Assembly: GCA_033723415.1 (NCBI GenBank)
Contig: JAWVXD010000005.1
Span: 32,001-96,000 of the forward strand
DNA length: 64,000 nt
Direction: 5' to 3'
Origin: Sulfurospirillaceae bacterium
GTDB taxonomy: Bacteria; Campylobacterota; Campylobacteria; Campylobacterales; Sulfurospirillaceae
Shown here: positions 42,301 through 45,300 of the stretch, piece after piece
How positions within the stretch are numbered: the stretch's first letter is position 1
Layout: every line of letters begins with the position of its first letter
Program-made: the position numbers

Positions 42301-45300
42301 AATAAACTTCACAAATATGGATATCTTTCTTAGCAAACTCTTCAATCATCCAGTCTGTAAGGTTTTCAAAATCTTTTTTCGTATAATATCCTCTTCCTAT
42401 ACCGGATTGATTTGTGACAATAATGATCTTGTAACCCAAACTTTGCAAATATTTCAAAACTTCAAAGATACCTGAGGAAAATTCAAAATCTTTGATCTGT
42501 CCGACATATGATTTATCTACGTTTATGATCCCGTCTCTATCTAAAAAAACAGCTTTGTTCATTTTACTTCTCCATAAGACCTTTGGAAATATCATTTAAT
42601 ATATGGGTATAATCAATATACTTGATATCTTTTTTGTGTTGTTCTAAAAGCCTACGTGAGATTTTAAAATATTTCACTGACTCAGCATGATTTTGAAAAT
42701 CTTCTTTCAATATCTTAGCCATGTAATAATTTGCGTAAAAATTTTCTTTATTATGTAAAAGTACTTTTTTGACTTCGCTTATACAGCTATATATTTGTCC
42801 ATTTTGTCTGTATGCAAGTGCCAGTTTCAATCTTATCTTATCTTGATGAGGATTGATCTTCAGACTTTTACCGTACCCGATAATAGCTTCATCTAAAATA
42901 CTCAATTCATAATACCCATCAGCCAATTTATTCCAATAAATAAAATTATTTGTTTTTAATGCTTCTTTCCTGAGTTTTGTAACCTGCAGAGCAAAAGGTA
43001 TGATTTTTGCTATCTCGCTGTTTTTAACGATACTTGGATCTATCCCATATGCATCTGTCAGAATTTCAAAACCTTTTGTCAATTTACCCTTTTTGAGATA
43101 TATGTTTGCCAACTGTAACAAACACTTTACATTCTCCGGCTCTATGTCCAATATCTTTTCTATTTGAGCCCTTGCAACTTCGGTATTAAACCTTCTAGCT
43201 GTGCATATAGGATAGTTTGACGAATACAAAAAAATCGAAAATAAACATAATATAAAAAAGTTTTTCAACAAGACAATTCCCTAAATAAAGTATGTATAAC
43301 GTGATGTTATCTTAAAGAGGATTAAAAAAAACATTTAAATAAATAAACGCCAACTAATCTAAGAAAAAACAAAGTTTTACAAGAAAATTTAAAGATATAC
43401 ATGATAAAATTATGACCAAATTAAAAAAAAGGAAACGTATGAAAAAGATAATTATGGCTACAGCTCTTGTTTTCGCAGCAAGCTCAGCAGTAATGGCAGC
43501 AGACACAGATGTTAATGTTGCAACGTGTAAAGGTTGTCATGGACAAAACTTCGAGAAAAAAGCACTTGGTGTATCAAAAATTGTAAAAGATATGACTCAT
43601 GCAGAAATTGCAACTGCACTTAAAGGATATAAAGCTGGTACTTTCGGTGGCGCTATGAAAGGTGTTATGAAAGGTCAAGTATCTAAATATTCTGATGACG
43701 ATTTAGTAGAATTTTCAAAAACAGTAGGTAAGTAATTTACTTTGGCGGGTATACCCGCCTTTTGCATACTTTGTCTTTGCCCAAAAGCAATTCTCCACAT
43801 TTTGCAAGGAGATACAAAAATGAAAACTCTCATTTTTTTATTTTTTATTTTTACAAGTACTTCACTTTTTTCATATGATGGCGCTGTTATTTTTAACAAA
43901 TGTGCAAAATGTCATGGCATAGACGGGAAACATAAAGCTTTCGGTAAATCTGCAAAGATAGCCGGTGCACCGGCAAAACAAACTATTGCAGTATTAGAAA
44001 TATTTAAAAATATGTCTAGAGTAGATAAATTTGCAAAAGTCATGAATAAAGAAGTTTCAAAACTAAACGAAGAGCAGATAAAAGCAGTAGCAGAATATAT
44101 CTCAAAACTAAAATAGTCTAATCAGGCGGTCCATATCCTTTTTCTTTTGCCTTTCTTTCTTTTATATTCTTTTTTCTTTCTTCCAACATAACAGCATCCT
44201 GCAAAGATTCCTCATCATCATATAAAGCTCCATCCAGAAATTTATTTTGATCATCAAATTGACCTGTTCTTAAACCCCAAATAAGTGCCCAAAGTCCAAA
44301 AGCTCCAAGCGTTATAGATGCCCCAAGCATCATGGCTATAACCCAACTGTTCATATTAACTGTCTCCTTTAACTTGGGACAGGTTCCAAGTTAAATTCCT
44401 CTCACTAAAGCTTCGCCCTTGGCGAGAATTTTTCATTAACTGTCTCCTCCAACATTTAGTATGATCATTATTTTCTTTTTGGTGTCTTAATCATATTGAT
44501 TCTCATAGAATTTCCTACAACTATCAATGAACTAAGTGACATTGATAAAGCTGCAAACAGCGGAATCACATATCCTGCCATAGCAAGTGGTATCGTTATA
44601 GCATTATACAAAAATGATAACAATAAATTTTCTTTAACGATACGAAATGTCCTCTTTGAGATCAAGAATGAGTAATACAGTGACTCAAATGAATTATTTA
44701 TAAGTACGACATCACTTACATTTAGAGCTATATCAGCCCCACTACCCATAGTTATAGCTATCTCACTTTTTGAAAGTGCCAAAGCATCATTGATCCCATC
44801 TCCTACCATGACTACTTTTTTACCGTTCTTTCTAGCCTCTTCTATTATATTAGCTTTCTCTTGAGGCAGTAAAGAAGCATAAAATTTTTCTATTCCTACT
44901 CTATTGCATATTTTTTTTGCCACTTCCTTATTGTCTCCTGTCAGCATAATCACTTCTACACCTAAGTGTTTGATATTTTCTATGCTCCAAGCAGCATCTT
45001 CTCTTGGTATATCTTCTAATGCAAAAACTGCCACTACTTCATTATTGATTGCAAAGTAGTATTGACTAAAATCTTCAAAACTGCTATTACATTTTATACC
45101 ATTTTCAGATAATAAACTCATGCTGCCACCATAAAGTGTAGCTCCTTCATAAGTGGCTTTTATGCCTTTTGCTTCGATATTTTTGATGTTTTGCAAGTCT
45201 TTTATTTTAAATTTTTCTTCCTCAAAATATTCTGCTATCGCTTTACTTATAGGATGAGTAGAATTTTTACTTAGAGAATATAAAAGCGATCTGTCAAAAT

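Follow-up and report, generated by a model that had tools for sequence, protein, structure and literature searches.

What is the short sequence that stands between ccoS and the gene preceding it in this Sulfurospirillaceae genome, and how did it come to lie directly in front of a start codon? In the 64,000-nucleotide stretch of contig JAWVXD010000005.1 analyzed here (the window), a copy of a dispersed repeat was located at positions 44352-44434 of the minus strand, with a P-type ATPase gene on one side and ccoS on the other. We call the ATPase gene ccoI-like from its location preceding ccoS. When 32000 is subtracted from these coordinates, the corresponding segment (window 12352-12434) is ordinary sequence from which the element is absent. 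The core 20-mer of the repeat gave an exact match at 44393-44412 and a one-mismatch match at 50806-50825, both on the minus strand, against an expectation of zero in 100 shuffles. The features of the ccoS copy, and of two further copies in the window, are the following:

44468..46885, minus strand: upstream P-type ATPase gene with E1-E2_ATPase and Hydrolase domains (domain search)
44434..44450, minus strand: direct repeat at the 5' end, GGAGGAGACAGTTA and then the ATG of a mini-ORF (sequence)
44450-44442, minus strand: Shine-Dalgarno-like GGAGGAGAC (sequence)
44436-44434, minus strand: ATG of the mini-ORF (ORF listing)
44356..44436, minus strand: 26-codon mini-ORF across the whole element (ORF listing), not conserved in the family
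44363..44429, minus strand: repeat body of 67 nt, made up of ATTCT, hairpin 1, core, hairpin 2 and AAAGGAGA (nhmmer C5:76429-76363, E 2.1e-16; covariance model, 84.8 bits)
44413..44425, minus strand: hairpin 1, with a conserved AAG/AAAG loop on a stem of 4-5 bp whose sequence varies (sequence and covariation)
44393..44412, minus strand: invariant core AGCTTTAGTGAGAGGAATTT (exact match; 8 exact copies in the genome)
44368..44395, minus strand: hairpin 2, a 10-11 bp stem in which the UUU at the base pairs with AAA of the ribosome-binding site (folds and covariation)
44363..44370, minus strand: AAAGGAGA, the Shine-Dalgarno sequence of ccoS, followed by an 8-nt spacer and the start codon
44355..44362, minus strand: element-type spacer CAGTTAAT, with the mini-ORF stop TAA at 44356-44358 (sequence, ORF listing)
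44352..44354, minus strand: ATG of ccoS, FixS family (ORF 44118..44354; PF03597, E 8.6e-15)
50776..50841, minus strand: second full copy, immediately 5' of recR (ATG 50767-50769; nhmmer C5:82841-82776; RecR domains)
50856..50904, minus strand: partial copy with core, hairpin 2 and Shine-Dalgarno sequence, in a tandem pair with the copy at 50776-50841 (nhmmer C5:82904-82856, HMM positions 19-67)

The full unit of about 80 nt consists of the 67-nt body and the element-type spacer with its TAA. Many copies have at their 5' end an extra block of Shine-Dalgarno sequence, spacer, ATG and A-rich codon, so that the element is bounded by direct repeats resembling a translation-initiation region. In the ccoS copy the direct repeat at the 5' end shares 13 identical nt (GGAGACAGTTAAT) with the 3' end.

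Based on iterated nhmmer searches (E<=1e-3), 35 copies were found in the genome, and 33 with a covariance model. The genome-wide survey's note had counted 36-41; its nine identical cores fit our counts of nine for the core 16-mer and eight for the exact 20-mer. The claim that every copy points the same way as the gene behind it was borne out, as a same-strand ORF of at least 45 aa was present downstream of 35/35 copies. In 28 of the 35 a same-strand ORF of at least 80 aa ends 150 nt or less upstream. The start codon lies 3-8 nt past AAAGGAGA in 21/35, and four of the remaining copies are upstream members of tandem pairs, five of which occur in this genome; elsewhere there are arrays of three copies at parB (G002) and of four copies at 74-nt spacing (G011). 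We also assembled 102 unique full-length copies, of which 23 are from this genome, 78 from 21 others and one unassigned; in this wider set the start codon lies 6-8 nt past AAAGGAGA in 84 cases and a co-directional gene is found within 200 nt upstream in 80. The G-rich strand holds 24 of the 35 copies versus 62% of the long ORFs; it follows that the orientation of the copies is set by the gene and not by the replication fork. The genes behind copies include rbfA, ureC, arsC, ccoS, argB, recR, clpX and nuoC, among others, and also parB, dnaE, rplK, secY, atpA, gyrB, recA and trpB. Since these are unrelated partners in housekeeping operons, the family is not a regulon. The element had been described as inserting at gene starts inside operons. 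The sense orientation and the position just before the start codon agree with this, but the copies are not confined to such places: some lie within the RNase P RNA gene or directly before 16S rRNA, and 22 of the 102 have no co-directional gene within 200 nt upstream.

The copies were also said to bring a fresh ribosome-binding site to the downstream gene, and our data support that they supply it. The Shine-Dalgarno sequence of the element stands just before the start codon and, together with its spacer, is unlike what is found in the ordinary initiation regions in this genome; a TAA is present in the spacer of 74% of the element copies and of 16% of the ordinary regions. Of the genes behind copies, 86% begin with ATGA and 47% with ATGAAA, compared to 55% and 22% of ordinary genes. 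Concerning the short coupled upstream reading frame that had been regarded as a constant part of the element, its 5' ATG was present in 43/102 copies and missing from 59/102, and the coupled frame is also missing from a copy conserved across one genus. Among the 43 copies with the ATG, 29 have a frame that ends no more than 16 nt from the gene start, while in 10 it stops within the body and in four it reads on into the gene. An ATGA overlap with the gene start was seen at the 3' side in 16/102 copies. At the 5' side, 10 of the 37 copies that could be evaluated have the stop of the upstream gene overlapping the mini-ORF ATG. Stop codons in all three frames, another of the proposed properties, were found in 61 of the 85 copies with a nearby ATG, whereas the other 24 have stops in two frames.

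The open 26-codon frame of the ccoS copy, with a Shine-Dalgarno sequence of its own, and the 29 of 43 ATG-bearing copies whose frame ends close to the gene start could suggest a small protein-coding gene of 26-27 codons. Alternatively, the repeat could be a metabolite- or regulon-linked leader such as a riboswitch, as three arginine-pathway genes (argB, argF and argG) carry copies here. We consider both possibilities very improbable. The frame lacks its ATG, stops early or reads into the gene in the numbers given above, hairpin length differences of one base shift it, and the compensatory changes in the stems (see below) alter the encoded residues. As for a leader, the downstream genes belong to all functional classes and those of other genomes show no arginine bias; an arginine regulon was rejected because no arg gene appeared among 66 downstream genes from other genomes. 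A search of Rfam gave no family overlapping the element at E<=10, only weak and unrelated matches, in agreement with the genome-wide survey's note.

Both hairpins covary strongly. In the 23 copies from this genome 88.5% of the cells in the proposed helices pair, and sliding the partner lowers this to 31-57%; for the 80 copies of other genomes the values are 95.4% and 42-62%. Pairing is favoured in these figures where the alignment used (A3) had been fitted to the structure of the model. Changes on both sides of a pair amount to 67 cells in the 23 copies compared to 23.6 +/- 3.7 after shuffling (0 of 500 shuffles reached 67), and to 339 cells in the 80 copies compared to 102 +/- 9. Three stem pairs of hairpin 1 were changed on both sides in 14, 8 and 9 sequences of this genome and in 47, 52 and 32 of 79 distinct copies from other genomes. 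For hairpin 2, 92-96% of the cells are paired and 7-9 pairs are changed on both sides. G.U pairs (68) greatly outnumber A.C mismatches (13). Hence the paired hairpins with compensatory change proposed earlier were recovered with more copies, and the stems are maintained on the sense strand. Single-sequence folding predicted hairpin 2 in 9/10 cases. In 8/10 the 5' half folded into a different helix, and the arrangement with two hairpins may therefore represent one of two states. A second conformation is also suggested by the complementarity of the core to the conserved 5' UUCU and to the AAAG loop. The combination of a GC-rich hairpin and a U run on the sense strand, as in terminators and attenuators, was not found, since hairpin 2 is followed by AAAGGAGA, and the lone call resembling a terminator at the element concerns the antisense strand. 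The hairpins are most likely kept for an action in mRNA, which might be insulation of the Shine-Dalgarno sequence or protection of the transcript.

While the stems covary, the loop of hairpin 1, the core and the 5' UUCU are fixed. The core 19-mer was found exact in at least 121 stretches of a public genome collection, across several families; among the matches listed, the records were only Campylobacterota-labelled or unlabelled, and some are titled Sulfurospirillum arcachonense DSM 9755. Carriage by phages or plasmids was considered and rejected: the 19-mer appears in two viral contigs, without hairpins, apparently in coding sequence and in about the number expected by chance, and in no plasmid. 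A 19-nt sequence that stays exact across several families would be better explained by a conserved binding partner than by passive copying. This raises the possibility, which we regard as doubtful, that the element is a host RNA device, in which core and hairpins form an mRNA platform for a conserved Campylobacterales factor, for example an RNA-binding protein, an RNase cutting between the hairpins or the ribosome. It would then act as a mobile regulon or as a processing or insulation site across many operon-internal genes. The covarying stems around fixed segments, the excess of G.U over A.C, the strictly sense orientation and the hint of a second conformation are all consistent with such a device; however, the downstream genes have no common function.

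Comparison of orthologous sites among relatives provides further evidence on this point and shows how the family behaves over time. The number of model matches varies among relatives from 0-3 to 69, and the distribution across the order is patchy. Outside its own taxonomic family the repeat was present in 23/141 genomes of the order, a much wider spread than the 4 of 114 genomes reported before. At six sites the element is present in part of the relatives and missing from the rest; two of these sites belong to non-coding RNA genes (RNase P RNA and the 16S leader). In 13 genomes of the genus the ccoI-ccoS site is empty in nine, where the ccoI stop codon overlaps the ccoS ATG, filled with different subtypes in three, and occupied by a decayed remnant in one. 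At parA-parB, where 11 of 12 loci could be evaluated, five were empty and four filled, one of these with three tandem copies; the others had a possible remnant and an unrelated element. At infB-rbfA (9 of 12 loci evaluable) five were empty and four filled or decayed, and a response-regulator site is empty in one genome (G008) and filled in two (G009 and G012). The RNase P RNA gene measures 406 and 415 nt in G020 and G044 and 325-337 nt in three other genomes, and in G020 the element is located in the loop of one helix. The 16S leader has the insert in three genomes (G017, G018 and G019) and none in G021 and G011; no 16S gene was found in the assembly of the window. An origin of the repeat in an rRNA leader, such as an antitermination box, was rejected because these last two genomes lack the leader copy, which is itself an insertion. 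The repeat is a dispersed family that has been gained and lost at orthologous sites, and the six polymorphic sites back the mobility that had been proposed from differences in copy number and position.

Several of these comparisons tell against a host device. The bodies at ccoS, parB and rbfA of one genome (G011) are decayed while their ribosome-binding site is retained, orthologous copies of G009 and G012 differ by about 11%, near the genome average of about 15%, and the copies in the RNase P RNA gene and in the 16S leader serve no translation. One site points the other way. Between hemB and the ornithine carbamoyltransferase gene (argF), a copy is present in 6/6 loci of a genus with almost no other copies, and it is 93.4% identical compared to 62% at the third codon positions of the next gene (downstream-gene figures only, as differences in C-terminal length misaligned the codons on the hemB side). 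Such retention suggests that the body as a whole has a function for the host, which a purely selfish model would not predict. A leader of the pyrimidine type had been considered for this site and was dropped, as the conserved downstream gene encodes ornithine carbamoyltransferase and Rfam gave nothing.

How the copies spread can be approached through their junctions. The body ends with ATTCT at one side and with AAAGGAGA at the other, and is flanked by direct repeats. The response-regulator site has lost its native spacer TGTCT, and GACAATAAT flanks the body on both sides. The left junctions were located in the Shine-Dalgarno sequence (G013), after ATGAGTA (G003) or after the stop codon (parB of G000), and the right junctions at the ATG or within A-rich codons (MCAKK to MKK, MPKS to MKS). 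The direct repeats are copy-specific, with a Smith-Waterman score of 9.79 against the own other end and of 7.80 against other copies (p 5e-4), and a score of 12 or more was reached by 22/102 copies compared to 8% of the non-self pairs. The homologies proposed at the junctions are very short, 3-20 nt, and the 5' repeat showed no significant trend towards better preservation in younger copies (Spearman 0.15, p 0.14). A fresh insertion was sought between G009 and G012, where the sites are filled in both genomes; as the closest pair compared is only about 85% identical, with no insertion caught between near-identical strains, the ancestral spacers could differ and the apparent replacement could be divergence.

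A miniature element of the MITE, REP/REPIN-like or IS200/IS605-derived hairpin type, moved in trans by a transposase from elsewhere in the genome, would fit the two hairpins close to the ends, the range of copy numbers among relatives and the patchy presence in the order. Most genomes do have Y1_Tnp genes (PF01797; 55/61 in the family). Yet the genus with 0-3 copies per genome has these genes in 26/28 genomes, and they are missing from G053 and G056, two incomplete genomes with as many as 35 and 28 matches, respectively. Small GIY-YIG frames (PF01541, 97-125 aa) were identified in 3/61 genomes and not in this one; the other PF01541 matches, present in nearly all genomes, are about 600 aa long, presumably UvrC judging by their size. 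Neither type of gene tracks the copy number, which upholds the earlier remark that no transposase is linked to the element. Moreover, the repeats at the ends are direct and not inverted, there is no target-site duplication of fixed length, the junctions vary, the native spacer was replaced and not duplicated, and the orientation is independent of the replication strand. An enzyme-driven element is thus improbable.

The reading that we favour, with a probability of about 55%, is that of a MIRU-like, non-autonomous family of small dispersed repeats across the Campylobacterales, copied into initiation regions without an enzyme of its own. Copies would be made into sequences that resemble the Shine-Dalgarno to ATG ends of the element, by template switch or by short-patch ectopic conversion; one crossover would fall in the Shine-Dalgarno sequence or stop codon of the target, or close to it, and the other at or just after its ATG. 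Copying by such likeness would account for where the copies lie and for their strict orientation, as well as for the variable junctions, the tandem arrays and the changed first codons of some host genes. Once a copy is in place, translation of the downstream gene would begin from the Shine-Dalgarno sequence of the element, predicted to be free where hairpin 2 ends on its 3' side. A ribosome starting at the 5' block of a full-form copy would terminate at or on the start codon of the gene (ATGA or TAA-ATG), and the element could work as a natural bicistronic coupler. More tentatively, and with rather less likelihood, the repeat may home to initiation regions with no transposase involved: as its ends mimic a Shine-Dalgarno to ATG segment, it would be copied by template switching at short homologies, look-alike targets such as the RNase P RNA loop would also take copies, and the core, invariant throughout the order, would dock a conserved host factor, so that each jump would rewire the post-transcriptional control of another operon-internal gene.

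If the favoured reading is true, the Campylobacterales have their own natural portable intercistronic module, made of hairpin, Shine-Dalgarno sequence and optional coupled leader ORF, which would be a ready spacer for operon engineering in AT-rich hosts. The module is tolerated in essential operons (infB-rbfA, nusG-rplK, atpH-atpA, nuoB-nuoC and an operon reading into secY). Since a cultured carrier exists, as seen from the exact core in the records of S. arcachonense DSM 9755, the binding of the core, the cutting of the mRNA and the movement of the element can be tested.

Among the known repeats, the synthetic and enterobacterial systems offer partial parallels. Synthetic bicistronic designs consist of a first Shine-Dalgarno sequence, a short ORF containing a second one, and a stop codon overlapping the start of the gene or lying next to it. 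The full form of the element follows the same logic, while being natural, mobile and hairpin-bearing. The leader ORF is gone from most copies with no sign of harm to the gene. The REP/BIME and ERIC sequences of enterobacteria, and REPINs with their RAYT gene, are small structured repeats that are transcribed between operon genes, with hairpins thought to be active in mRNA; they occur in both orientations, mostly after genes and without a ribosome-binding site, and REPs are linked to the RAYT gene. The element is likewise small, structured and placed between operon genes, but it is strictly sense and its copy number is not tracked by Y1 transposase genes. MITEs such as the Correia elements and the Rickettsia palindromic elements are non-autonomous, multicopy sequences of about 100 nt that affect the expression of neighbours (PMC10969869), whereas the element lacks terminal inverted repeats and a fixed target duplication; the text of that review has no occurrence of ribosome-binding sites, Shine-Dalgarno, start codons, Campylobacter or Helicobacter.

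The closest relative in design is the MIRU of mycobacteria. Text searches of the literature gave no description of this repeat family, but the class cannot be called undescribed, as the earlier note had it, because MIRU are a published precedent: according to the parts of PMC12548453 that deal with them, these repeats are mobile, have start codons as insertion sites and contain a coupled ORF (Supply 1997). As portrayed there, they are short intergenic repeats of operons in the orientation of the genes, as are the 35/35 sense copies here, and in both cases the number of tandem copies varies, with arrays of two to four units in the element, which could serve as strain-typing markers like MIRU-VNTR. 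In the same passages the internal ORF of MIRU is coupled through a 4-nt overlap. In the element an ATGA overlap occurs in a minority of copies, 16/102 at the 3' side and 10/37 for the stop overlap at the 5' side, and most copies lack the ORF; biotechnological use of a short ORF that delivers ribosomes is also mentioned (PMC12548453). By description, the two differ further in that the element belongs to another phylum, has a strong Shine-Dalgarno sequence of its own, two covarying hairpins and an invariant core of 19-20 nt, and also enters non-coding RNA genes. On the favoured reading the element would be a second, independent start-codon-targeting repeat beside MIRU, to which it adds clear evidence of structural selection, insertion into non-coding RNA genes, and junctions that point to homology-guided copying rather than to transposition.

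In the window the gap between the P-type ATPase gene and ccoS is occupied by the element, which is read there on the minus strand. Its parts in 5' to 3' order, the two genes, and a second locus of the window are as follows:

44468..46885, minus strand: upstream gene, P-type ATPase (E1-E2_ATPase and Hydrolase domains)
First part of the element, minus strand: 5' Shine-Dalgarno-like GGAGGAGAC (from sequence)
44436-44434, minus strand: ATG of a 26-codon frame (from the ORF listing)
Between the frame ATG and hairpin 1, minus strand: ATTCT (from sequence)
Between ATTCT and the core, minus strand: hairpin 1, with a 4-5 bp stem and an AAG loop (from sequence)
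44412-44393, minus strand: core AGCTTTAGTGAGAGGAATTT (exact match; none expected by chance)
After the core, minus strand: hairpin 2, its lowest pairs being UUU with the AAA of AAAGGAGA (from sequence)
44370-44363, minus strand: 3' Shine-Dalgarno sequence AAAGGAGA (from sequence)
Between AAAGGAGA and the ccoS ATG, minus strand: spacer CAGTTAAT, including the TAA stop of the 26-codon frame (from sequence)
44354-44352, minus strand: ccoS ATG, directly behind the spacer
44118..44354, minus strand: ccoS (FixS family)
50776-50841 and 50856-50904, minus strand: tandem pair of element copies before recR (second locus)

The body of the ccoS copy is flanked on both sides by the same 13 bases (GGAGACAGTTAAT). 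Read in antisense, hairpin 1 followed by AATTTTTCAT was called terminator-like (44412-44426, plus strand), and the 1-kb region around this copy holds two terminator-like sites against 0.4 +/- 0.6 expected; antisense transcription might be stopped by the element. Two small plus-strand ORFs convergent with ccoS (43412..43735, 107 aa; 43742..44116, 124 aa) each contain a CxxCH motif (CKGCH, CAKCH) and probably encode monohaem cytochromes c.

The genome-wide survey's note had described a two-hairpin element in front of start codons, an observation that holds and whose range is extended here. In the 2.43-Mb assembly of this genome (17 contigs), iterated nhmmer (E<=1e-3) found 35 copies, all with a same-strand ORF downstream, and a covariance model built from 23 of the genome's copies found 33; the exact core 20-mer occurs eight times and the core 16-mer nine times. 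A start codon lies 3-8 nt behind AAAGGAGA in 21 of the 35, and four of the 14 copies without this spacing are the upstream members of tandem pairs. At 28 of the 35 a co-directional ORF ends within 150 nt upstream. Pfam names were obtained for 27 of 30 distinct downstream ORFs and 22 of 24 upstream ORFs submitted. The flanking pairs are classic operon neighbours with functions unrelated to one another: IF-2 and RbfA, urease beta/gamma and alpha, ArsB and a low-molecular-weight phosphatase (ArsC-like), LpxA-like and ClpX, NuoB and NuoC, ParA and ParB, NusG and L11, ATP synthase delta and alpha, PhnI and PhnJ, Map and IF-1, Fur and LysS, and UMP-kinase-like and RpoZ (upstream gene first); SecY, DnaE and others are further downstream genes. 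In other genomes the 66 downstream genes form just as mixed a set (atpC, gyrB, recA, trpB, rpsM, rplL, rplM, guaA, hemN, response regulators and more). A regulon was ruled out by this functional mixture in both sets. No Rfam family overlapped the ccoS copy at E<=10. Two copies have an extra 20-40 nt inside the core (L019, G000:C5:215072-215179; L010, G000:C3:327654-327740); these inserts begin alike, C[TC]CACAGAGAGTG..., and such copies may form a sub-family with a third hairpin.

In the 23 copies of this genome, 88.5% of the cells of the two-hairpin structure are paired, against 31-57% with the partners slid, and both partners have changed in 67 cells, where shuffles give 23.6 +/- 3.7 and 0 of 500 get to 67. 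Eighty copies from other genomes, none used in building the model but aligned by fitting to its own structure, gave 95.4% paired cells (42-62% with the partners slid) and 339 double changes, where shuffles give 102 +/- 9 (0 of 500 reach 339). The excess of G.U pairs over A.C mismatches (68 versus 13, about half of the G.U coming from one column pair) means that selection acts on the sense-strand structure, whether in RNA or in DNA. Hairpin 2 was recovered in nine of ten single-sequence folds (z-scores -0.2 to -4.1), and the 5' half folded differently in eight of ten minimum-energy folds. In an alternative helix CUUUAGUGAGAGGAA of the core is the partner of three stretches: the conserved UUCU, the 5' arm of hairpin 1 and the AAAG loop. 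In all copies (alignment A3, model positions 1-34) the 5' UUCU, the AAAG loop and the invariant core are mutually complementary, in competition with the covarying hairpin 1. In the 80-copy alignment this helix is 78% paired (45-63% slid) and hairpin 1 93% (30-49% slid); covariation cannot judge the former because most of its columns are invariant. The 5' half may be a two-state RNA.

The earlier note had also given the element a short coupled upstream reading frame. Of 102 unique copies of full length, 23 come from this genome, 78 from 21 others and one is unassigned; an ATG lies within 12 nt upstream of the body in 43 of the 102, but 59 have none. The frame ends within 16 nt of the gene start in 29 of the 43, 16 of these as an ATGA overlap; it stops inside the body in ten and reads on into the gene in four, and one-base length differences in the hairpins shift it. 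The small ORF is not the unit of selection. Stops in all three frames, which the note had likewise proposed, are present in 61 of 85 copies; yet they are a safeguard at most, since the upstream genes of this genome end before the element.

Gain and loss are seen at orthologous sites. In 13 genomes of the own genus the ccoI-ccoS junction is empty in nine, where the stop of ccoI overlaps the ATG of ccoS and the Shine-Dalgarno sequence lies inside ccoI. It is filled in the genome under study and in G013, where a perfect 19-nt direct repeat stands on either side and the mini-ORF is ATGA-chained to both genes; G003 has a different subtype, with the native Shine-Dalgarno sequence retained upstream and ATGAGTA repeated, and G011 a decayed remnant. 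The parA-parB junction (11 of 12 loci evaluable) is empty at five loci, with 1-3 nt from stop to start, is filled in G000 (this genome), G006 and G007, and holds three tandem units in G002; G011 has a 79-nt spacer, a possible remnant, and G004 an unrelated element. This last insert, within locus L064 (G004:C95:20938-24515), is ~270 nt long, has terminal inverted repeats of ~35 nt (GTACCCCACC...GGTGGGGTAC) and resembles a classical MITE; it fits precisely between the stop codon of parA and the start codon of parB, the junction used by our element in other genomes. At infB-rbfA (9 of 12 loci evaluable) five are empty and four filled or decayed, and a response-regulator site is empty in G008 and filled in G009 and G012. 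A composite variant at the parB site of G007 (L070) and the rbfA site of G010 (L084) has hairpin 2 swapped for a much longer one of ~70 nt (CTGCCCATAAAT...ATTTATGGGCAG) before GGGGACATTAAATG.

The note placed insertion at gene starts inside operons; the RNase P RNA gene and the 16S leader are entered as well. In G000, G011 and G050 the RNase P RNA gene has a length of 325-337 nt, but in G020 it reaches 406 nt and in G044 415 nt. In G020 the element takes the place of the loop of a helix closed by CCAT...ATGG, which we take to be P12, and a model match lies at the same place in all five genomes of its genus. The G044 gene (L302, G044:C10:46406-46820) has a ~90-nt diverged insert in the same helix as the low-copy genus, retaining only GCTTTAG and a hairpin-2-like AAGAGCTTTGCTCTT. 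In G018 an element-like insert immediately precedes the 5' end of the 16S gene (model E 1.2e-4); G017 and G019 have decayed ones, recognised by eye alone, and G021 and G011 have none. The sequence of the empty RNase P loop in G011 is GAAAAAGGT ATGG and that of the empty 16S leader in G021 is ...TAAATTTTATGGAGAG; these non-coding targets, too, look like initiation regions.

We set the 3' ends of 85 copies against 152 ordinary initiation regions from this genome (AGGAGA 4-9 nt before ATG), gene starts being crude ORF calls. TAA is found in 74% of element spacers versus 16% of ordinary ones, TTAA in 35% versus 2%, and the gene starts with ATGA behind 86% of copies versus 55%. Judged by these frequencies the 3' Shine-Dalgarno sequence and spacer are the element's own, which agrees with the fresh ribosome-binding site for the downstream gene claimed earlier. 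Many copies have the same Shine-Dalgarno-spacer-ATG block on the 5' side, with copy-specific spacers matching at both ends: end-to-end alignment scores are 9.79 for self and 7.80 for non-self pairs (p 5e-4), and 22 of 102 copies score 12 or more, versus 8% of non-self pairs; of the 84 copies without an upstream tandem partner, 21 score as high. At the response-regulator site the empty relative reads ...AGATAAAGGA TGTCT ATGAATAAC and the filled relatives have GACAATAAT on either side of the body; the native spacer appears to have been replaced, not duplicated. Left junctions lie in the Shine-Dalgarno sequence (G013), after ATGAGTA (G003), after the upstream stop codon (parB of G000) or at the native ATG (rbfA of G009); right junctions fall either at the ATG or among A-rich early codons, in the latter case altering N-termini (ParB MCAKK to MKK, RbfA MPKS to MKS). 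Short homology between the terminal Shine-Dalgarno...ATG repeats of the element and the target initiation region would lead to its copying, by template switch or short-patch ectopic conversion. Such copying would account for the position, strict sense orientation, variable junctions, altered N-termini and tandem arrays, and spread is probably enzyme-free and homology-guided; among the genomes compared, no recent event between near-identical ones came to light.

Transposition of a hairpin on the lagging strand was weighed against this. The G-rich strand carries 24 of the 35 copies versus 62% of 1504 long ORFs, and gene orientation is followed by all 35; element orientation goes with the gene, not the replication fork, which argues against that route. 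Of 61 family genomes, 55 have Y1 transposase domains, among them 26 of the 28 in the genus with 0-3 copies; no such domain was found in the incomplete assemblies of G053 (35 matches) and G056 (28 matches). Small GIY-YIG frames occur in only three of the 61. Both enzymes were rejected as drivers, their presence not following copy number. The larger GIY-YIG frames, found almost everywhere in these genomes, are UvrC-sized. Viral carriage was also rejected: the exact core 19-mer lies in two IMG/VR contigs (L305, L306) without hairpins, in an apparent phage coding region, and was judged a chance match from a rough estimate of collection size. Plasmids gave no match to the 19-mer.

Within the family 48 of 61 genomes have model matches (E<=1e-3), per-genome counts being bounded by the number of candidates scored: all 13 relatives of the own genus (15-69 each), 14 of 14 and 3 of 3 genomes in two further genera, and 15 of 28 in the low-copy genus (0-3 each). 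Outside the family, 23 of 141 genomes of the order match (E<=1e-6), in eight further families, several with 5-24 copies. The exact core 19-mer occurs in at least 121 stretches of a species-level genome collection; among the matches listed the labels are Sulfurospirillum (including S. arcachonense DSM 9755), Sulfurimonas, Sulfurovum, Nitratifractor, Arcobacter, Campylobacteraceae, Helicobacteraceae and Campylobacterales, or none. For 22 of 101 copies the nearest neighbour comes from their own genome, where shuffled labels give 8.5 +/- 3.1, so some amplification takes place within genomes. Four consecutive model matches at 74-nt spacing (G011:C1:526772-527059), with a fifth at 527697, form the longest tandem array seen, which is VNTR-like.

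The evidence on host function is mixed. In the low-copy genus a copy without the 5' ATG lies between hemB and the ornithine carbamoyltransferase gene (orthologue in this genome named by NCBIfam) at six of six loci; its mean identity is 93.4%, versus 62% at third and 94% at first and second codon positions of the next gene, which implies that the whole body is under purifying selection. Against a general function, the bodies at ccoS, parB and rbfA are decayed in G011 while the Shine-Dalgarno sequence remains, and the orthologous hemN-site copies of G009 and G012, genomes ~85% identical, differ at 7 of 66 positions. We conclude that the Shine-Dalgarno sequence is what the host needs everywhere, and that the body is constrained at some sites and in lineages still spreading. 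The order-wide invariance of the core is the strongest hint of a partner.

A MITE was rejected as the identity of the element, which has neither inverted ends nor a fixed duplication, and so were a REP/RAYT system, an ERIC element, a riboswitch and a terminator. The literature searched, also for the core sequence, contained no description of the family, and a 2024 MITE review (PMC10969869) mentions neither ribosome-binding sites nor Campylobacter/Helicobacter. The survey's reading as a mobile element is largely borne out, given that orthologous sites differ in the presence of copies. In kind, however, the class is not new: the mycobacterial interspersed repetitive units (MIRU; Supply 1997), as one passage of a review (PMC12548453) presents them, are a precedent, and the closest one. 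To the extent of that passage, the two share their logic, orientation and tandem behaviour, and in a minority of element copies the ATGA chaining; unlike MIRU, the element brings a Shine-Dalgarno sequence of its own, two covarying hairpins and a core that is invariant; most of its copies have lost the ORF, and non-coding RNA genes are among its targets too. It is best classed as a MIRU-like intercistronic repeat with an unusually clear structural signature.
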